From positions 1,929 to 65,928 of the forward strand of contig CAZJGC010000002.1 in the NCBI GenBank assembly GCA_964545795.1: 64,000 nucleotides of DNA, given 5' to 3'. The position numbers were made by a program, and so were the translations under genes. Under the pieces are notes generated by a model. It was not told where the DNA came from. It did not search any database and worked only from the letters and a program-made list of their open reading frames with translations. Below are positions 46,982 to 56,654 of this stretch, one piece after another. This DNA comes from an uncultured archaeon (GTDB taxonomy: Archaea; Aenigmatarchaeota; Aenigmatarchaeia; Aenigmatarchaeales; DAIDAN01). The first letter of the stretch is position 1; each line of letters opens with the position of its first letter.

Positions 46982-47743
46982 TTATTTCATCCATCCAAGA
47001 ATTGTTTCAATCCATGATTTTTTCTGTTCTGTGTATTCTACTCCTTCAATGTAGTGCGCAACTCTCTTGAATTCTTTGGATGCTCTGGATTTTGGATAAT
47101 AATGAACCACAGGCATTTTCATTGCTATTGATTCCTTAACTTTTTTGTCTTCTGGCACAACTCCTATAATTGGAACTTCAAGTATGGATTGTATTTCATC
47201 TATAGAGAGTTCGTGTTTATGCCCCTTTATCTTATTAACAACAGCGCCTATTATTCTGTTTCCTTCATTTTCTGCTATTTTTATTGTTTTTAGCGCGTCT
47301 GTTACTGCCGGAAGTTCAGGGTTTGTTACAACAATTATTTCGTCTGAAGACCTTATGGATGCATGCGCTTCCCTGCCAAGCCCTGCGGCAGAATCTATTA
47401 GAACAATACCATTCTTTCCCGACAGTGTTCTAATAACATTTTGCAGTTTTTTTGGTTTTAGTCCTTTTAGCGCGTCAACTGAAAGCGAGGCAGGTATAAC
47501 TTTGATGCCTGAGGGATGTATGTATATTGCTTCTGTCAAATATGCATTTCCTTTGAGGACATCATGCAAAGTTATTGGATATAAAGGAATCCCAAGATGC
47601 AAAGAAAGATTTGGAGTTGTAAGATTTCCATCAATTATTGTGACATCTCTCCCCATTTCAACAAGAGATGCGCCAAGATTTACAGCAGTTGTTGTCTTTC
47701 CAACGCCGCCTTTTCCTGATATTATAGAAATAACTCTTGCCAT
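46982..47743 (-). CDS. MinD/ParA-family ATPase
   Basis: IISGKGGVGKTTTAVNLGASL, a deviant Walker A. Confidence 0.75.
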   Translation of the reverse strand: MARVISIISGKGGVGKTTTAVNLGASLVEMGRDVTIIDGNLTTPNLSLHLGIPLYPITLHDVLKGNAYLTEAIYIHPSGIKVIPASLSVDALKGLKPKKLQNVIRTLSGKNGIVLIDSAAGLGREAHASIRSSDEIIVVTNPELPAVTDALKTIKIAENEGNRIIGAVVNKIKGHKHELSIDEIQSILEVPIIGVVPEDKKVKESIAMKMPVVHYYPKSRASKEFKRVAHYIEGVEYTEQKKSWIETILGWMK

Positions 47744-47974
47744 AATATTTATTAAAAAAGAAAGTATAAAAAGGTTGTTAGTTGCAGCAGGATTTTTGCT
47801 GCTGAAGCCTCTTGAATCTGCCGCTATGATTTGCGGAGAAGATTTAATTTTCTCTGTATGTGATTATGAAAAATATTTTGTCGGCTTCATTTCAAGCATG
47901 GCTTATGCATTATTAAATTATGTGCAGGTTTAAAGAAAATCTGTTTTGGTGGGCCCAACGGGACTCTCAAAAGG

Positions 47975-48085
47975 GTTGATAAGGGGTTGCATGTTTTGGA
48001 CAGCCCCGCTTTTCATGTTCTTCAAAAGGGTTGATAAGGGATTTCAAGATCTACACCTTCCCTTATTTTGAACCCGCGACATCTC
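47975..48085. repeat. Intergenic hairpin repeat, copy B (related to 702-810)
   Basis: gttgataaggggttgcatgttttgGacagccccgcttttcatgTtcttcaaaagggttgataaggg...cttattttgaac differs from copy A by 2 mismatches in the first unit and a truncated second unit. Confidence 0.65.
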
Positions 48086-48298
48086 GGTTTCTTCCTGTCA
48101 TTAATCCTTGCAGGATTTCAACATGCTTTTATCAACAGATAAAAGCCGAGCACTCTATTGTCCGAATTTTTCTTTTGCTGAAGATTTTTCTTTTTAAAGA
48201 AAACTTCTCCAGACTGAGTTATGGGCCCTTTCCAAAAATAATTACTTATTAAAACTTTTAAAGTTAATTGCGAAACAAAAGAAGTGAAGGTTAACATA

Positions 48299-48661
48299 TC
48301 ACTTAATAAGTTTTGCGTTAACAACTCCATGCTGTCCTGGCCTTGACGTTACTTTTGCCATGCCATCTTCTGTTTCAATTATTGCGCCTTTTGTTATTAC
48401 ATTCATTCGCACAAAGTGCGGGTTTGCGCTGTTTTCTTTAACGCTCAAAATTTTAGATACTTTGCCGTTTGAGAGAACTGCTTTGTCGCATTTAAGTAGT
48501 CTTACTTTTATATTGCAACCTCTTGCATCAACAATCTTTCTTTTTGTTTCAGCAACTTTAACAGGAAAGAAATCTCTGGCTAACTCATGCAAATGTTTCT
48601 TTGAATTTCTCTTGTACAGCCCGCCAGTCGGTTTTCTCTTGCTTCTGCTTTGAGTTTTCAT
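48299..48661 (-). CDS. rps8e: Ribosomal protein S8e
   Basis: MKTQSRSKRKPTGGLYKRNSKKH matches the S8e N-terminus. Confidence 0.85.
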   Translation of the reverse strand: MKTQSRSKRKPTGGLYKRNSKKHLHELARDFFPVKVAETKRKIVDARGCNIKVRLLKCDKAVLSNGKVSKILSVKENSANPHFVRMNVITKGAIIETEDGMAKVTSRPGQHGVVNAKLIK

Positions 48662-48925
48662 AACAGAAATTAATAACTATAAGTATATAAACTTAACACT
48701 TGCGCGTGTTCTGTTAATTTATGCTGGTTATAACGATTTTCAGATAAAAATGAAGCCAGTATTTTGGGATTTTTTGCGGGAAAATCCCAGATAATCGCTG
48801 TTAGTTTCTCCGAACGAATGTGAGGATTGAGTTTTAGTGCAACGTCCTTTCCGAAGGAAAGGCTGGTAAGAGTAAAAAATGGGTCGCAGCCGAAAATATA
48901 TACTCAAGTATATAAATTAAGTTTT

Positions 48926-48965
48926 GGAGATTTTTCGTCGTTTTATTTCTTTGAGAGAGGGTGTC
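48926..48965. repeat. Left terminal inverted repeat of the cassette
   Basis: See the mobile_element entry. Confidence 0.55.
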
Positions 48966-49018
48966 TTTCAATATATTTATAAATATGTCTAAATATTTCT
49001 ATTATAGAGGGATTTGAA

Positions 49019-49165
49019 ATGCCAAGTAAAAGCGTTACATTAAAAGTTGATTCTGAGTTATATGACAAATATAGAGAGTATTGTAAAAAGAAAGGTTTAA
49101 TTATTTCAAGACAATTTGAAATTTTTATTGAGAATGAATTAAAAAAGAGGTCACAAAATGAATAA
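49019..49165 (+). CDS. Ribbon-helix-helix (CopG/antitoxin-like) small protein
   Basis: Manual translation: MPSKSVTLKVDSELYDKYREYCKKKGLIISRQFEIFIENELKKRSQNE. The beta-strand then two helices fit the RHH pattern. Its stop overlaps the next gene's ATG. Confidence 0.5.
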   Translation: MPSKSVTLKVDSELYDKYREYCKKKGLIISRQFEIFIENELKKRSQNE

Positions 49166-49730
49166 TATATTCAATAATCTTGATGATGAAGAGAAAATTG
49201 TATTATATTCGCTAGGAGCTTTAAATAACACTCCGCTTAGAAGCAGAATTAAAATACAAAAATTATTATTTTTGATATCAAATGTTTTTAGTGAATATAA
49301 AGATCTTCTAGAATTTGAACCACATTTGTTTGGTCCTTATAGTGAAACTTTGGAAAATATCTTAGATGATTTAATAAAATTAGGTTTGGTTGTTAAGAAA
49401 GGAGTTAAATATGAATTAACTGAAAAAGGAAAGAAATTGTATGCACACCTTAAACCTAAGAAAGAATTAATAAAAGTTATAGAAGACTTTAAAGAATTTC
49501 TAAATGACTTGCCGGATGATGAAATCCTTGCTTTTGTATATGTAACTTATCCTGATTATATTAGTGAATCTGCCAAGTGGGATGAATTAAAAAAAGACAG
49601 AGTAGAAATTGCAATATCCTTGTTAAAGAAAGAGAAAGTTAGTTTTGGCAAAGCTGTAGAAATCTCTGGTTTAACTTCTCAAAAATTTGAAAAAATTTTA
49701 GAAGAGAGGGGCATCAAATGGAAGAAGTGA
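49158..49730 (+). CDS. Panacea (DUF4065)-like N-domain fused to a UPF0175-like antitoxin C-domain
   Basis: RSRIKIQKLLFLIS...FGPYSETL is Panacea-like. C-terminus: KVSFGKAVEISGLTSQKFEKILEERGIKW, compared with the UPF0175 consensus slgkAAElaGmsrweF.elL.erGIp. Confidence 0.5.
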   Translation: MNNIFNNLDDEEKIVLYSLGALNNTPLRSRIKIQKLLFLISNVFSEYKDLLEFEPHLFGPYSETLENILDDLIKLGLVVKKGVKYELTEKGKKLYAHLKPKKELIKVIEDFKEFLNDLPDDEILAFVYVTYPDYISESAKWDELKKDRVEIAISLLKKEKVSFGKAVEISGLTSQKFEKILEERGIKWKK

Positions 49731-50290
49731 CTACAAAGATATTGGATAATACTGTGCTCTCTGCAAGCATAAAAGAGATTAAATGTATCGATTTAATTAA
49801 GACCTGTTCTTCAAAATATAACCTTGCCACGACAGAAGAAGTCTTTGATGAGTGCCAAGATGGTTTTGATGGCATACAGATAGAAGAACAATTAAAGTTA
49901 ATTGATGTACATAATTTAATGAATAATGAAAAATACTGTGAATTAAAAGATTTTTTATTAGCCAGGTATCCTTATTTACACAAAGGGGAGATTTCATCTT
50001 TTTTATTATCTCTTTTGAAGTTTGAATTAAGTTGTATTCCATACTATTTTGTTACAGATGATAATAAAATGCGTAAGGTTGTATCGAAAATCCATGAAGA
50101 CACATTGTTTATATCAAAGCTGGGGAAAAATATTAGAAGATTTAGAATGACAGGAACTATAGGATTAATAAAGAGAATGTATATTAGAGGTATAATTTCA
50201 CAAGAAGATATTGATAAAATAATTGGAGACCTACAAAACAGTACATTTCGTATAACTCCTGATTTGATAAACTATTTGCGAGGTAGTTAA
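49718..50290 (+). CDS. DUF3368-like predicted PIN-domain nuclease (putative toxin partner of UPF0175)
   Basis: KILDNTVL..., HKGEISSFLLSL...FVTDDNKMRKV...TGTIGLIKRMYIRGIIS matches the GEaeaI...DDrkaR...GTlGvL pattern. Confidence 0.5.
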   Translation: MEEVTTKILDNTVLSASIKEIKCIDLIKTCSSKYNLATTEEVFDECQDGFDGIQIEEQLKLIDVHNLMNNEKYCELKDFLLARYPYLHKGEISSFLLSLLKFELSCIPYYFVTDDNKMRKVVSKIHEDTLFISKLGKNIRRFRMTGTIGLIKRMYIRGIISQEDIDKIIGDLQNSTFRITPDLINYLRGS

Positions 50291-50291
50291 T

Positions 50292-51368
50292 ATGAAACTA
50301 AAAGTAAAACTAGATAATATTGATGAAGAATTAATGTTTAAGAGAATTATATTTAAGGTAGGAGATAAAAAAGTCGTGACTCCAATTAAAGTTAGTCATA
50401 AACAGAATCCTATCAGTCATATAAATGAAATCTACAAAAAGTTTGATTCAATTAAACTGGATAAATGTGCGAACGATGAATCTTTTGAAAGAAAAATAAA
50501 CTCAGAATTGAAGAATTTAATGACACAAGGAATTAATGTTTGTTTAGTTGATTATGCTGACTTAAAAATACCCACTAGTGCGCAATTGGAAACTTTATCT
50601 GATTTACAATACGAGCATAGCGATATAGTTACAACACCTATTATGTCAAAGATAATGAGAGACAAAGAAATATATGTTGGAGAAAAATTAATTAATACAT
50701 TTCTTAATGTAGCGAACAAGTATATAGAGATTGTTGAAACGCTAAATAATAAATCTATTATGGGTGTGATACCTTCAAAAATACCTCGACTATTCTTAGA
50801 ACCCATAATTAAAAATTATCATAACAGAGGTGTGAACTCGTTTATCTTAGATTTGGATGGAAGGTCTATAGAAAGTAATCTTAGTTGGATAAGAAAATTG
50901 ATGAGATTATTAAAAGAATATGATTTAATAGAAGTATCTGTACTTTACACTGTTAATTCTAATAAAGGAAAGTTTATGAAAAATGCGACAGAAATATTGG
51001 CTAAGGACTTTATAAGCGCTGGCTTTGGGGCTGATATTTTAGGCCTTAACCATATTCCTCTAAGGATGCCCTCTGAAGCATGGATTAAAATAAAAATGCA
51101 AAGAAGAGAGAACACATTGAGATTATTTAATAAAAGAAGTTACGGTTATCTAAAAAAGACAGAAACAGAACTAAAACAATTAGGCCTCTATAATAGGAAT
51201 GAAATAGAAAATTTCAACATCTCAGAACAATTCAAAGAAACACAAGTTTTACAACAAAAGTTAAAAGAAGAGAACACTATAGAACCTTACATTAAATCAA
51301 AATCACAAGTTAAGGAAGATGTTATAAAGAAAATAAAGAAGATCAGATCTAATACATTCAGAAGGTAA
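50292..51368 (+). CDS. Uncharacterised 358-aa protein inside the cassette
   Basis: No recognisable motifs. Tightly packed between the DUF3368 gene (1-nt gap) and mod (4-nt gap). Confidence 0.5.
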   Translation: MKLKVKLDNIDEELMFKRIIFKVGDKKVVTPIKVSHKQNPISHINEIYKKFDSIKLDKCANDESFERKINSELKNLMTQGINVCLVDYADLKIPTSAQLETLSDLQYEHSDIVTTPIMSKIMRDKEIYVGEKLINTFLNVANKYIEIVETLNNKSIMGVIPSKIPRLFLEPIIKNYHNRGVNSFILDLDGRSIESNLSWIRKLMRLLKEYDLIEVSVLYTVNSNKGKFMKNATEILAKDFISAGFGADILGLNHIPLRMPSEAWIKIKMQRRENTLRLFNKRSYGYLKKTETELKQLGLYNRNEIENFNISEQFKETQVLQQKLKEENTIEPYIKSKSQVKEDVIKKIKKIRSNTFRR

Positions 51369-51372
51369 TAAC

Positions 51373-53871
51373 ATGGCAAGAAAGAAAATTATAAAGAAAG
51401 ATGAAATAAAACAGTACATTCATGAAGATAAACAGAGAGTGAATAATCCCCCTGTTGGCTTAGTGAGTGCAGAAACTGACAAGCTAAATGGCAAAAAAAC
51501 TTACAAGTTTGACCCACATCTTGATCCAGAACTTCAATGGGCAGGCAAAGCAGAAGGAGTCAGTTTTGAAGTTGATACTGTTTCTCTCCATGTTCATGAA
51601 AGAATAGACCCACTAACAATTATCGAAGCAGTTAAAAAGAAGGATTTAAAAGAACAACAAACACTGTTCCATTATTTTGAAAGTCCATCTGAGAATCTTC
51701 CAATTAGAGAAGCTATAGAGTTCTATAAACATTCTCATGGTTGGTCTAACAGGCTTATAGCAGGGGATTCTCTTCTTGTTATGAATTCTTTATTAGAAAA
51801 AGAAGGAATGGCTGGAAAAGTGCAAATGATTTATATTGATCCGCCCTACGGTATAAAATACAGTTCTAATTTCCAACCATTTGTCAATAAGAGAGATGTA
51901 AAAGATGGCAAAGACGAAGACTTAACTCAAGAACCAGAGATGATTAAAGCATTCAGAGATACTTGGGAATTAGGTATTCACTCCTATTTGACATATCTTA
52001 GAAATAGATTACTTTTAGCAAGAGAACTATTAACTGAAAGCGGAAGCATTTTTGTGCAGATCTCAGATGAAAATTTGCATCATGTCAGAGAAATAATGGA
52101 TGAAATTTTTGGACCAGAGAATTTTATGTACATTATTCCTTTTAGGACAGCCATTAGTACTAATATGATATATTCTATTGCAGATTTCCTTATCTGGTAT
52201 GCAAAAAATAAAAAAGAAGTAAAATTCAACAAACTATTGGATAAAAGATCTCAAGAGAATATAAACAAGACTTTTAATTGGATTGAACTATATAATGATA
52301 TAGAAAGACCTATTAAACCAAAAGAAATATCAGAAAATAATATTCCTAATGGTAAGAGATTTAAACCTGTCGATATCACTAGTAAGAGTGGTTCTGAAGA
52401 GAATTATTTCCCTATAAAGTTAAAAGGCAAAGTATTTTACCCACCTAAAGGAAAATTTTGGTTCTTTAATAAAGAAGGTTTTGAGAAACTAAAAAAAGAA
52501 AATCGTTTTGTAATTATAAACAACAAACTATATGGAAAAAAGTATGAAAGTGATTTCCCCTATATGTTACAGACAAATCTGTGGACTGATACTGCTTCAA
52601 GTACATTCTCTTCAGATAAGATTTATGTCGTTCAAACAAATACAAAAGTTGTTGAAAGGTGTATCTTAATGACTACTGATCCAGGAGATTTAGTTTTTGA
52701 TCCGACTTGCGGTTCAGGAACAACTGCTTTTGTTGCGGAAAAATGGGGTAGAAGATGGATAACTTGTGATACTTCAAGGGTTGCAATAGCATTAGCAAAG
52801 CAAAGGTTAATGACAGCTGTTTTTGATTATTATGAATTAGCTCATCCCGATGAAGGAATCTCGAGTGGTTTTAATTATAAGAAATTCAAACATAGAAGCT
52901 TAAAAGCTCTAGCTAGAAATGAGCCTTATCGTGAGACCGTTCTTTATGATCAACCAATAATTGACAAAAACAAGAAAAGAGTAACTGGTCCTTTCACTGT
53001 TGAGGCAGTTCCTTCTCAAAGAGTTTGGTCTTTTGAGGAAGTTGAAAAAGCAAGGCAAGAGGCAGATATGAGTATCGCCAGAGAAGGAGAAACAGTAAAA
53101 CAAAATGATTGGATTGACAAGATGCTTTCATCAGGAATTAGGGGAAAAGGTGGACAAATTCTTGAATTTGCAAGAATTGAATTATTACCTGGAACAAGAT
53201 GGATTCATGCAGAAGCAGAAACAAAAGACGGACAAAGAGCAGTAATATCTTTTGGTCCTGAATATGCTCCATTAGAGCAAAGACAAGTAGAGTTAGCAAT
53301 TGAAGAGGCACAAACATTAGTTCCGAAACCAAAATTAGTAATTTTTGCATCTTTCCAATTCGATCCCGAAGCTGCAAAAGATATTGATGAATTAAAATGG
53401 CCTGGCGTCACAGTCTTAAAAGCTCAAATGGATACTGATTTGCTTACAGAAGATTTGAAGAAAAAACCAAAGGATTCGCCCGCATTTTGGTTGATAGGAC
53501 AGCCTGATGTTGAACTCACTAAAAAGGGAGATAAATATATTGTTACGGTCAATGGCTTTGATTACTACAACACAAAAACTAGTGAAATTGAATCAGGAGA
53601 TGTTTCAAAAATAGCAATGTGGGAATTAGATACTGATTATGATGGAAGAAGTCTCTATCCAAGGCAGGTATTTTTCCCAATAGCTGGTTCAAAAGAAGGA
53701 TGGAGTAAACTTGCAAGAAGTCTTAAAGCACAGATTGACGAAGAACTGATTGAAAAATATAGAGGAAATGTTTCTTTACCATTCAAATTAGGAAAAAACA
53801 AACAGATTGCTGTAAAAATAATTGATGATAGAGGAATTGAATCTCTAAAAATAATAAAGGTAAGAGAATGA
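51373..53871 (+). CDS. mod: Type III restriction-modification Mod subunit (beta-class N6A/N4C DNA methyltransferase)
   Basis: Motif IV IYIDPPYGI comes before motif I FDPTCGSGTT, which is the beta-class permutation. 832 aa. Confidence 0.75.
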   Translation: MARKKIIKKDEIKQYIHEDKQRVNNPPVGLVSAETDKLNGKKTYKFDPHLDPELQWAGKAEGVSFEVDTVSLHVHERIDPLTIIEAVKKKDLKEQQTLFHYFESPSENLPIREAIEFYKHSHGWSNRLIAGDSLLVMNSLLEKEGMAGKVQMIYIDPPYGIKYSSNFQPFVNKRDVKDGKDEDLTQEPEMIKAFRDTWELGIHSYLTYLRNRLLLARELLTESGSIFVQISDENLHHVREIMDEIFGPENFMYIIPFRTAISTNMIYSIADFLIWYAKNKKEVKFNKLLDKRSQENINKTFNWIELYNDIERPIKPKEISENNIPNGKRFKPVDITSKSGSEENYFPIKLKGKVFYPPKGKFWFFNKEGFEKLKKENRFVIINNKLYGKKYESDFPYMLQTNLWTDTASSTFSSDKIYVVQTNTKVVERCILMTTDPGDLVFDPTCGSGTTAFVAEKWGRRWITCDTSRVAIALAKQRLMTAVFDYYELAHPDEGISSGFNYKKFKHRSLKALARNEPYRETVLYDQPIIDKNKKRVTGPFTVEAVPSQRVWSFEEVEKARQEADMSIAREGETVKQNDWIDKMLSSGIRGKGGQILEFARIELLPGTRWIHAEAETKDGQRAVISFGPEYAPLEQRQVELAIEEAQTLVPKPKLVIFASFQFDPEAAKDIDELKWPGVTVLKAQMDTDLLTEDLKKKPKDSPAFWLIGQPDVELTKKGDKYIVTVNGFDYYNTKTSEIESGDVSKIAMWELDTDYDGRSLYPRQVFFPIAGSKEGWSKLARSLKAQIDEELIEKYRGNVSLPFKLGKNKQIAVKIIDDRGIESLKIIKVRE

Positions 53872-56654
53872 AAACAACAAAACATCTTATAATAAACAGT
53901 CCATACGAAAAGCCTAAGAAACATCTTAAATACATAAGAGAGATCAGGCAGTTTCAATTAGTTGAAGGAAGAAGACCAGCCGGTTATGTTGTTGCATCTG
54001 AACATTCTGACAGTTTTGATGATCCTGGTTTTTTCATAGAATTACCTTTAGTAAATAAAATAAGAGAAAGGATTGATAAATGGCGCGACGCAGGATATCC
54101 TGGAATAACAAGCATAACAAGAGACCTCTTAGATTATTGGACAAACACCCAAAGAGAGATGAGATTGTTCTTTTGTCAATTAGAAGCTATTGAAACATTA
54201 ATTTGGTTGATTGAAGCTCCAGAAAATGAGAAGCAAGGTATTGAAATTCCTAATGATGGGGGTGAATTCCAAAGATTATGCTCAAAAATGGCAACAGGGA
54301 CTGGAAAAACTGTTGTTATGGCAATGCTCATTGCTTGGCAGATTTTAAATAAAGTTACTTATCCAAAAGATACGAGATTTTCTAAATATGTTCTAGTTGT
54401 AGCTCCTGGATTAACCGTTAAGAACAGGCTACAGGTGCTAAATCCTTCTGATGAAAATAACTATTACATGCAGTTTGATCTTATCCCTCCTGGAATGTTT
54501 GATAAGTTAAGACAAGGTTATGTCAAAATAATAAACTGGCACAAATTATCTTGGGAAACTGAAGAACAAATTAAAAGAAAGAAAACTGTAGATAAACGAG
54601 GGGTAAAAAGTGATGAAGCTTACACGAGGGAAGTTCTTGGAGAAATGCGAAATGCAAAAAATATTATTGTTATAAATGATGAAGCGCATCACGCATGGAG
54701 AGTAAATCCTGAAGCAGTAGGAAAATATATTAGACAAAGAGACTTAAAAGATAGTGCAGAAGAAGCTACTGTTTGGATTGGTGGATTAGATAAAATACAT
54801 AAAACTAGAAACATTTTAAAATGCTTTGACTTCTCGGCAACTCCCTTTTACCCTTCAGGAAAAAAAGCTTCAGAGGAACTTCTGTTTGGTTGGATTGTTA
54901 GTGATTTTGGGCTAAATGACGCAATAGAGTCTGGTTTGGTAAAAACTCCAAGAGTTGTTATAAGGGATGATGGAAGATTAACCACTAAAATGAAGTCAAG
55001 ATTTTATCATATATATAACGATCCTGAAGTTAAATCAGATTTAGGTCGTAAAGCAGAACCACATGAACCTTTACCTGATTTAGTCATTAATGCTTATTAT
55101 TATTTAGGTCTTGACTGGCTTGAAACTTTAAAAAAGTGGAAAGGCAAAGTCGAAACTCCTCCTGTTATGATTACAGTTTGTAATCGTACAGAAACCGCAG
55201 CCCGCCTCGAATACGCATTTAATAATGGAAAAATAAGAATTGATGAATTAAAGAACCCCGACAAAACATTAAGAATTGATTCTAAAATACTTACAGAAGC
55301 TGAGAGCAAAGAAGAATCTGCATCGGATTCAGATGAGCAAGATACAAAAAATAAATTATCAAAAAAAGATAAAGCAGAATATCTTAGATTATTAGTTGAT
55401 ACTGTTGGAAAAGTTGGAGAACCGGGAGAGCAAATCCAAAATGTTATCTCGGTTGGTATGCTTTCAGAAGGATGGGATGCAAAAACCGTTACTCATATTA
55501 TGGGTCTGAGGGCATTCTCAAGTCAATTGCTTTGTGAACAAGTTGTTGGAAGAGGATTAAGAAGAACATCTTATGAAATAAATCCAGAAACAGGGCTATT
55601 TGAACCCGAATATGTTAATATTTTCGGGGTGCCATTTACTTTCTTGCCACACGAAGGTGGTAAAGATACGCCACCAGCACCACCAAAGCCAAAAACTAGG
55701 ATTTATGTAGATCCTAATAAAAAAGAACATGAAATAAGATGGCCTAATGTAATTAGAATTAATCATGTTTATAAATCAATGTTATCATTAGATATGAAGA
55801 AAGTTAGAAGATTGGAATTAAGACCTGAAGACACGCCATTAAGAACAGAACTTGCGCCAATTGTAGAAGGAAAGCCAGATGTTACTAAACTTAGTGACAT
55901 AAATCTCGCTGACGAGCAAGTTGAAAAAATTCTGAAGGTTTTAAGAAAACAAAGATTGATTTTTGAAATATCAAGAGAAATATTTGATCAAGTAAAACCA
56001 ACATGGACTGGAAATAAAGAATATTTGTTAATCCAGCTAGTTAAAATTGTGGAGGAGTTTATAGATTCAAATAAATTGGTTATAAAAAGTAAAAGTTATC
56101 AAGATGACTTGAAAAAAAGATTACTTATTTTGTTAAATATGAATAAGATTGTACAGCATGTTTTTAATGCTATTCGATTTGAGAATACTGAAGAACTAGT
56201 GCCTATTTTTGATAAGGAAATACCAATAAAATCAACAGCAAAAATGATGACTTGGTACACTAGTAAACCTTGTGAAATTACAAAAAAATCACATATTAGT
56301 CATGTTGTTTTTGATAGTTCGTGGGAGGCTTCTGAAGCTTTTGAATTTGATAGAAATGAGAATGTCGTTTCTTGGGTAAAAAATGATCATATAGGTTTTG
56401 TTATAAATTACGTCTATAGAGGAGTTATTCACAAATATTATCCAGACTTTCTAATTAAACTAAAAAATGGAAAGATGTTAATACTGGAAGTTAAAGGAAA
56501 AGATGATCAAAAGAATAAAACAAAAAGAGAATATTTAGATGAGTGGGTCAAAGCAGTTAATGCAGATGGAAGATTTGGGAAATGGGCCTGGGACGTTTCA
56601 TTTAGAACTTCTGATATTAAAGATATAATAAATAAACATTCAAAGGAAGACTGA
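53868..56654 (+). CDS. res: Type III restriction enzyme Res subunit (SF2 helicase plus a C-terminal PD-(D/E)xK nuclease)
   Basis: MATGTGKT Walker A. VINDEAHH DEAH box. C-terminal YYPDFLIKLKNGKMLILEVKGKDD. The start overlaps the mod stop (ATGA). Confidence 0.75.
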   Translation: MKTTKHLIINSPYEKPKKHLKYIREIRQFQLVEGRRPAGYVVASEHSDSFDDPGFFIELPLVNKIRERIDKWRDAGYPGITSITRDLLDYWTNTQREMRLFFCQLEAIETLIWLIEAPENEKQGIEIPNDGGEFQRLCSKMATGTGKTVVMAMLIAWQILNKVTYPKDTRFSKYVLVVAPGLTVKNRLQVLNPSDENNYYMQFDLIPPGMFDKLRQGYVKIINWHKLSWETEEQIKRKKTVDKRGVKSDEAYTREVLGEMRNAKNIIVINDEAHHAWRVNPEAVGKYIRQRDLKDSAEEATVWIGGLDKIHKTRNILKCFDFSATPFYPSGKKASEELLFGWIVSDFGLNDAIESGLVKTPRVVIRDDGRLTTKMKSRFYHIYNDPEVKSDLGRKAEPHEPLPDLVINAYYYLGLDWLETLKKWKGKVETPPVMITVCNRTETAARLEYAFNNGKIRIDELKNPDKTLRIDSKILTEAESKEESASDSDEQDTKNKLSKKDKAEYLRLLVDTVGKVGEPGEQIQNVISVGMLSEGWDAKTVTHIMGLRAFSSQLLCEQVVGRGLRRTSYEINPETGLFEPEYVNIFGVPFTFLPHEGGKDTPPAPPKPKTRIYVDPNKKEHEIRWPNVIRINHVYKSMLSLDMKKVRRLELRPEDTPLRTELAPIVEGKPDVTKLSDINLADEQVEKILKVLRKQRLIFEISREIFDQVKPTWTGNKEYLLIQLVKIVEEFIDSNKLVIKSKSYQDDLKKRLLILLNMNKIVQHVFNAIRFENTEELVPIFDKEIPIKSTAKMMTWYTSKPCEITKKSHISHVVFDSSWEASEAFEFDRNENVVSWVKNDHIGFVINYVYRGVIHKYYPDFLIKLKNGKMLILEVKGKDDQKNKTKREYLDEWVKAVNADGRFGKWAWDVSFRTSDIKDIINKHSKED

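Follow-up and report, generated by a model that had tools for sequence, protein, structure and literature searches.

The fusion gene and the PIN gene examined here belong to a set of three genes that recur together across archaeal lineages, the third of which encodes a 358-aa protein and lies directly downstream of the PIN gene. The earlier note on the window (the whole stretch of 64,000 nt that was analysed) had described a three-gene unit composed of a ribbon-helix-helix (RHH) gene, the fusion gene and the PIN gene, ending at position 50290. We found that the conserved third gene is the open reading frame (ORF) at 50292-51368, which had been overlooked, and that the conserved module consequently runs on to 51368. 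Our preferred reading, held with somewhat better than even confidence, is that the trio is a toxin-antitoxin-like module of three genes, mobile by horizontal transfer and mostly archaeal, in which gene A (the fusion gene) would encode the antitoxin and gene B (the PIN gene) the toxin, with gene C (the 358-aa gene) nearly always along.

Organization of the locus

The genes and domains considered below have the following positions in the window:

49019..49165, + strand: small basic protein of 48 aa, candidate RHH repressor (ORF with sub-threshold RHH-type matches)
49158..49730, + strand: fusion protein of 190 aa (gene A), candidate composite antitoxin
49158..49547, + strand: N-terminal domain of the fusion protein (approximately residues 1-130), divergent Panacea/DarG-C-terminal-like with a winged-helix core
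49557..49730, + strand: C-terminal UPF0175 (COG2886) HTH domain of the fusion protein (residues 134-188), followed by the stop codon (PF03683, E=1.5e-9)
49718..50290, + strand: predicted PIN nuclease of 190 aa and COG2405 type, carrying a helical DUF3368 extension at its C-terminus (gene B), candidate toxin
50292..51368, + strand: conserved protein 'p4' of 358 aa (gene C), no family match, linked to A-B
51373..53871, + strand: Type III DNA methyltransferase (Mod; Pfam N6_N4_Mtase 3.6e-32; PADLOC MTase_III 6.8e-153)
53868..56654, + strand: Type III restriction subunit (Res; Pfam ResIII 3e-9)

The three ORFs reported earlier (49019-49165, 49158-49730 and 49718-50290, all on the + strand) were present with their overlaps, which measured 8 nt between the 48-aa ORF and the fusion ORF (ATGAATAA) and 13 nt between the fusion ORF and the PIN ORF (ATGGAAGAAGTGA). 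The start codons of both 190-aa ORFs were consistent with the N-termini of their homologues, as was that of the 48-aa ORF with its orthologue in the related locus L002. Mod begins 4 nt past p4 and overlaps Res by 4 nt; it is a neighbour outside the conserved module and is possibly co-transcribed with p4. An Rfam scan of 47700-51500 returned a single sub-threshold snoR28-like match, located outside the module.

Domain composition of the fusion protein

UPF0175 forms the C-terminus of a longer protein, as had been proposed. PF03683 matched residues 134-188 of the fusion protein at 37.8 bits (E=1.5e-9, model positions 4-61 of 75), above its gathering score of 27.9 bits, and also matched 30 of 30 aligned fusion homologues. 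The domain is not strictly required for the pairing with the downstream genes, since a locus from Aenigmatarchaeota (L038) carries the N-terminal domain without UPF0175, the sole Pfam match of its gene A being SocA_Panacea (E=0.0098), and still has the PIN and 358-aa genes. The fusion had been described as an unusual and notable architecture, whereas it turned out to be standard in a large, mostly archaeal family: more than 120 clusters (90% identity) of ~190 aa share it at 38-100% identity, and they come from Altiarchaeales, Methanococci, Methanoregula, Heimdallarchaeota and a few MAGs labelled bacterial. In the source databases, these clusters go by no more specific names than 'UPF0175 family protein', 'YwgA' or 'predicted HTH domain antitoxin'.

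The N-terminus had been called Panacea-like on account of a KIQKLLFL...FGPY motif. This motif is real and constitutes the most conserved stretch of the family, and the assignment stood at the level of a DarG-C-terminal/Panacea-like fold class, but not at the level of the Pfam family: PF13274 (Panacea/DUF4065; gathering score 25.7 bits) had no match in the window protein or in 30 close homologues, even at E<=1. Pfam placed a winged helix (HTH_45) at residues 64-104 of the fusion protein, and DarG models matched residues 25-81 (NCBIfam, E=6.9e-5) and residues 9-119 (PADLOC, E=1.1e-6). Searched against the PDB, the family profile matched the C-terminal domain of M. tuberculosis DarG (7yk3_B, E=0.056) on a QKL...GPYSE segment, which is the same motif as that quoted in the earlier note. 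The AlphaFold2 model of the fusion protein (pLDDT 92.7) also had the DarG C-terminal domain (7YK3) as its top Foldseek match, with probability 1.00; generic winged helices ranked well below this domain, which is a toxin-binding part of an antitoxin.

We then compared a profile of the N-terminal 130 residues with 1.84 billion representative proteins, which yielded 1028 relatives at E<=1e-3. Among the best 147 of these 1028 relatives, UPF0175 was present in 92, while 7 matched PF13274 at E<=0.01, the best of them at 25.3 bits; two short relatives (P0283 and P0293) aligned to PF13274 over nearly the full length, P0283 at 23.6 bits and P0293 at 25.3 bits (cut-off 25.7). In bacterial proteins of ~294 aa that share this N-terminal domain, its fusion partner was DUF488 instead of UPF0175. 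According to a 2026 paper (PMC13621843), DUF4065 proteins are homologues of the DarG C-terminal domain, the part of DarG by which the DarT toxin is bound and inhibited. We conclude that the N-terminal domain of the fusion protein is a divergent member of the Panacea/DarG-C-terminal superfamily that lies outside the Pfam family as now defined. The failed DUF4065 search, an outcome that the earlier note had listed as refuting, is in our view not a refutation, because independent profiles and structure searches converge on the same superfamily.

The PIN protein

The protein encoded by gene B had been assigned as DUF3368 PIN-like, which was supported by a PF11848 match at residues 145-185 just below the gathering score, a VapC-like model and conserved acidic residues. 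PF11848 (DUF3368) scored 26.8 bits against the window protein (E=4.9e-6), 0.5 bit under its gathering score of 27.3, and was carried by 37 of 37 PIN homologues according to precomputed matches. D10 and E45 were invariant in the PIN alignment, and E91, D114 and D115 were at least 90% conserved. The AlphaFold2 model (pLDDT 91.8) matched VapC4 of P. horikoshii (5h4g) in Foldseek with probability 1.00 and TM 0.64-0.68; further top matches were other VapC toxins and HARP, a PIN-type RNase P. The PADLOC model PDC-S70 matched the C-terminus of the protein (3.4e-4). Judging from the conserved residues and the predicted fold, the gene B product is probably an active PIN nuclease of the COG2405 type. 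The statement that UPF0175 and DUF3368-PIN genes are a known gene pair agrees with the literature, in which the pairing is exclusive and COG2405 is the only PIN family paired with UPF0175 (PMC5499597, PMC2701414).

Linkage of the 358-aa gene and decay of the module

For a wider comparison, 58 related loci were collected from genomes, metagenomes and exact-protein look-ups and were searched with HMMs built for the individual parts. Leaving aside the window's own sequence (L001), 47 of the 58 loci matched the N-terminal domain strongly; 2 of these were cut at contig ends, resulting in 45 informative loci. The fusion, PIN and 358-aa genes occurred all together in 40 of the 45, and the PIN gene adjoined the fusion gene in 40 of the 45, with reading frames that usually overlapped or abutted in the loci surveyed. 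Within the 40 loci, the 358-aa gene followed immediately downstream in the same orientation in 34; it was convergent in 5, and in 1 it lay upstream and was divergent. The trio was present in Altiarchaeota, Methanococci, Methanosarcinales, Methanomicrobiales, Thermoplasmatota, Asgard archaea, Aenigmatarchaeota and a few MAGs labelled bacterial, and the linkage of the 358-aa gene holds across phyla, down to ~24% identity. No conserved flanking genes were found beyond the trio in the surveyed loci. A metagenome scan with a narrower 358-aa alignment gave 9 loci, with fusion and PIN genes in each one that had sufficient upstream sequence.

Five loci (L021, L031, L034, L037 and L059) were decayed: the fusion gene was intact, and the PIN and 358-aa genes were lost. 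In L031 and L037, the PIN gene was lost together with most of the 358-aa gene in a single deletion, and no more than the last ~60 codons of the latter are left. The five decayed loci thus retain only gene A, an asymmetry that is expected of an antidote.

The 358-aa protein had no credible match in Pfam, NCBIfam, PADLOC, PHROGs or PDB sequences, and its 108 homologous clusters were all named 'hypothetical', none with a Pfam domain. Two candidate relationships were discarded, namely Fe-superoxide dismutase, which was the best PDB match at E ~1, and a tRNA-guanine-transglycosylase-like barrel, which had been considered for an N-terminal 'G..K...TP' motif and had nothing in its support. The family has 13 invariant residues, mostly polar, and shares the motifs ETLNNKxIxGxIP, IDFDG, LAKDFxxxGFGxDxLGxNH and YGY. 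A crude propensity profile gave strands alternating with helices, followed by a helical tail, and the protein might conceivably be an alpha/beta enzyme. There was no match to it in a phage collection; a plasmid collection contained one distant homologue (Haloarcula), with neither the fusion nor the PIN gene nearby.

In the literature searched, we found no description of the Panacea-like core in this archaeal branch, of the C-terminal UPF0175 arrangement or of the linked 358-aa family. The earlier note had regarded a fusion of Panacea to UPF0175 as notable, but the principle of a Panacea core with an appended toxin-specific element is published (PMC10440598). Both this principle and the UPF0175-PIN pair are already known; among the three undescribed features, the 358-aa family is the foremost.

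Proposed mechanism

If the trio is a toxin-antitoxin-like module, A would bind B and block its RNA-binding groove. Panacea antitoxins neutralise via either their globular core or an appended toxin-specific element, and in the latter case the core is possibly a sensor (PMC10440598). By analogy, the UPF0175 part of A may be the cognate, PIN-specific element, and the Panacea-like core may provide extra binding or sense a trigger, in the way suggested for PanA antitoxins. A would also autoregulate, with its HTH repressing the operon, and the RHH protein would be an additional repressor in this lineage. Once A was lost or triggered, B would cleave RNA (plausibly tRNA or rRNA) and growth would stop, with C as a putative co-effector or sensor alongside A and B.

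Genomic context and alternative explanations

The module has a GC content of 0.24-0.29, compared to 0.355 for the window. The module and the restriction-modification (RM) pair are flanked by housekeeping genes, those for PheRS, a MinD-like ATPase and ribosomal protein S8e at one end and those for primase and GINS at the opposite end. With its low GC content and this placement, the module looks, together with the RM pair, like an acquired islet. A DNA methyltransferase gene directly follows the 358-aa gene in L020 and L002 as well, and genes for Type I RM, DUF1156, SNF2 and ResIII recur in a minority of flanks.

These neighbours bear on a first alternative, antiviral abortive infection, in which the Panacea-like domain would sense a viral trigger and the PIN protein, the 358-aa protein or both would be effectors, alongside the adjacent RM system. 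Besides the methyltransferase genes after the 358-aa gene and the recurrent defence-type genes in the flanks, this explanation is in line with the sensory role proposed for Panacea (PMC10440598) and with the related PIN family PDC-S70 being an archaea-enriched defence-island candidate (PMC12988326). Most loci, however, had no recognisable defence genes adjacent, and the phage collection had no match. We regard abortive infection as possible, well short of probable; it overlaps the toxin-antitoxin-like reading instead of excluding it. Equally tentative is a more far-reaching proposal, that the trio is a tripartite system of toxin-antitoxin or antiviral type, chiefly archaeal and previously unrecognised, in which the 358-aa protein founds a new family of effector or sensor enzymes, controlled together with PIN by a Panacea/DarG-like sensor-antitoxin. 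The Panacea-like and UPF0175 domains might in that case each handle one partner.

Another explanation is that no toxin-antitoxin system is involved and that A is a two-HTH transcription factor in control of an operon that encodes an RNA-processing PIN protein (HARP/VapC-like) plus an accessory enzyme that has a cellular function. We consider this unlikely, given the patchy distribution with one copy per locus, the low GC content and RM neighbours in the window, and the recurrence of RM genes in other flanks. Moreover, the decayed loci keep only the regulator-like gene, and in structural comparison A comes closest to the toxin-binding domain of an antitoxin, with generic winged helices well behind.

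It is similarly improbable that A and B are an ordinary two-gene type II pair, made up of a composite antitoxin and a PIN toxin, with the 358-aa and RHH genes as unrelated neighbours. The UPF0175-COG2405 system has indeed been described as a two-gene one (PMC2701414, PMC5499597), searches linked the 358-aa protein to no toxin-antitoxin or defence family, and its distant homologue on the Haloarcula plasmid stands without A or B. However, the 358-aa gene was adjacent in 40 of the 45 loci, in three orientations and while the other flanks vary, and in L031 and L037 one deletion took out the bulk of the 358-aa gene along with the PIN gene.

The 48-aa RHH-like gene

The separate RHH protein that had been placed first in the unit is encoded by a real gene that does overlap the fusion start, while its assignment to the RHH class is weak, the profile matches being sub-threshold. 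The best of these, to RepB-RCR_reg, reached E=1.1e-3 and 19.3 bits (cut-off 21); RelB/ParD (0.034) and aCcr1 (0.009) also matched weakly, and hits to Arc and SvtR among PDB sequences were not significant (E ~0.8-0.9). Since these matches coincide with a strand-helix-helix sequence pattern, the protein is probably an RHH repressor. Compared to its L002 orthologue, 33 of 48 residues were identical (69%), with pN 0.18 and synonymous sites saturated; the gene is clearly real and under purifying selection. Its 48 residues leave no room for a toxin-binding tail, and we therefore read the protein as a repressor added in this lineage. Only 1 of the 47 related loci (L002) has the gene, and L059 has a truncated remnant of it fused to the start of the fusion gene, which makes the RHH gene a lineage-specific accessory outside the conserved module. 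A 66-aa ORF upstream in L015 looked CopG-like by eye, had no Pfam match and was not counted as RHH. An 18-nt direct repeat and an AT-rich palindrome were observed upstream of the RHH gene and may mark a promoter or operator, although two-copy repeats in AT-rich DNA easily arise by chance. That the RHH gene is the core third component of a unit with the fusion and PIN genes is very unlikely, because this gene is confined to L001 (the window's sequence) and L002, with the remnant in L059, even though it shares 8 nt with the fusion start, is under purifying selection and has a parallel in tripartite systems with a separate RHH repressor such as omega-epsilon-zeta.

Significance

UPF0175-PIN pairs are among the commonest predicted archaeal toxin-antitoxin systems, and in a large branch of this predicted family the candidate antitoxin has a Panacea/DarG-like core as its base. 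PIN nucleases in archaea would thereby be added to the known range of this promiscuous antitoxin fold. Most known immunity systems come from bacteria; should the 358-aa protein prove to be an effector or sensor, archaeal immunity would gain a new component. The whole trio is present on the chromosome of the cultured Methanosarcina barkeri str. Wiesmoor, in which the 358-aa protein is MSBRW_1867. With a cultured copy in Methanosarcina, a genetically tractable genus, questions on the trio should be directly testable.

Comparison with known systems

The closest described system is the predicted type II pair UPF0175 (COG2886)-COG2405/DUF3368 (Makarova 2009, PMC2701414; Matelska 2017, PMC5499597), in which a UPF0175 HTH gene likewise lies immediately upstream of, and overlaps, a PIN-DUF3368 gene, and which is likewise mainly archaeal in distribution. 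Unlike in that pair, UPF0175 is here confined to the last ~55 residues of a 190-aa protein, behind the 130-aa Panacea-like domain, the PIN protein has ~190 aa, and a 358-aa third gene is conserved. The PanA/PanT systems (Kurata 2022, PMC8832971; Ernits 2023, PMC10440598) share with the fusion protein the motif class QKLxF... GPY/V, a globular core with a toxin-family-specific appended element (compare Panacea with Phd-C for Doc) and a gene that adjoins that of the toxin. They differ in that the HTH is here C-terminal, not N-terminal, that the partner is PIN-DUF3368 and that a third gene, rare in PanAT loci, is near-obligatory. As the fusion family falls under the PF13274 threshold, it would have escaped the published census of Panacea proteins, in which gathering cut-offs were applied. 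The DarG C-terminal domain of DarTG (7YK3) shows the best structural and remote-profile similarity to the fusion protein, at 14-17% identity; in contrast to DarTG, the locus has no macrodomain and no DarT-like gene.

Tripartite systems with a separate repressor are represented by omega-epsilon-zeta and PaaR-PaaA-ParE. As in these, the antitoxin gene in the window comes after a small RHH-like gene that overlaps it; unlike in these, the RHH gene is not conserved, and the conserved third gene encodes a large downstream protein, not a repressor. Weak to moderate profile matches were also found to two PADLOC candidates, PDC-S70 with the C-terminus of the PIN protein (3.4e-4) and PDC-M19A with the N-terminal domain of the fusion protein (3.1e-14), and we infer that the bacterial ~294-aa DUF488 fusions are candidates for the PDC-M19A type. 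PDC-S70, an archaea-enriched family (PMC12988326), is treated as a single-gene system, in contrast to the three-gene module described here.

Gene order and elements around the module

GC content in the module (49019-51368) is 0.24-0.29, lower than in the restriction-modification genes (0.33) and in the window (0.355). Housekeeping genes enclose the islet on both sides, with PheRS alpha/beta, a MinD-like ATPase and S8e located upstream and the primase and GINS genes downstream. The following features were identified in the window:

47832-47909, + strand: Rfam match, below threshold, to snoR28 (a C/D-box family), intergenic, beside the MinD-like gene
48944-49011: 18-nt direct repeat in two copies 50 nt apart (TATTTCTTTGAGAGAGGG, TATTTCTATTATAGAGGG)
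48966-48996: AT-rich palindrome between the repeat copies, just 5' of the RHH start
51373-56654, same strand as the module and directly downstream of it: Mod (832 aa) and Res (928 aa) of a Type III restriction-modification system

Because the 358-aa gene is separated from Mod by 4 nt and the Mod and Res reading frames share 4 nt, all on one strand, the genes at 49019-56654, six in all, could be transcribed as a single unit. Among the related loci, the 358-aa gene is followed after 10 nt by an N6_N4 methylase in L020, and after 36 nt by an MmeI-like methyltransferase fragment in L002. The repeats and palindrome 5' of the RHH gene could represent a promoter or operator, or a chance occurrence in AT-rich DNA. 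The stretch resembling snoR28 was scored at 26.7 bits in Rfam (gathering score 45; E = 0.075) and could be a C/D-box sRNA of the archaeon or simply a spurious match.

Partial and apparently decaying copies in related loci

In two related loci (L033 and L039), the PIN and 358-aa genes are fragmented across several reading frames, but both the N-terminal domain and the UPF0175 part of the fusion gene can still be recognised; the trio in these loci appears to have reached an intermediate stage of decay. Parts of the module, or relatives of them, were noted in two further loci:

L059, 2635-2706: RHH-like start of fusion protein P0019, in a MAG labelled Patescibacteria
L046, 3986-5200: 404-aa distant homologue of the 358-aa protein, on Haloarcula sp. 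JP-L23 plasmid CP050016.1

Residues 1 to ~13 of P0019 (GTKNITLKIDEKL) correspond to the beginning of the RHH protein, and it looks as if an RHH remnant was joined to the fusion gene by a deletion in this locus, which carries neither the PIN gene nor the 358-aa gene. The L046 homologue, encoded on a haloarchaeal megaplasmid, shares 24.6% identity with the 358-aa protein (E = 1e-17), and Panacea-like, UPF0175 and PIN genes were not detectable within 4 kb of it.

Bacterial relatives of the Panacea-like domain

The Panacea-like profile also matched the N-terminus of bacterial proteins of ~294 aa in four loci (L041, L042, L044 and L045) from Pedobacter, Cytophagales, Prevotellaceae and Gammaproteobacteria MAGs. 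DUF488 was the C-terminal domain in both of the loci scanned with Pfam (L041 and L045), which would give the Panacea-like domain another fusion partner, unrelated to the first. The best PADLOC match of the window's fusion protein was the candidate family PDC-M19A, which the ~294 aa bacterial proteins equal in length and to which they may belong.
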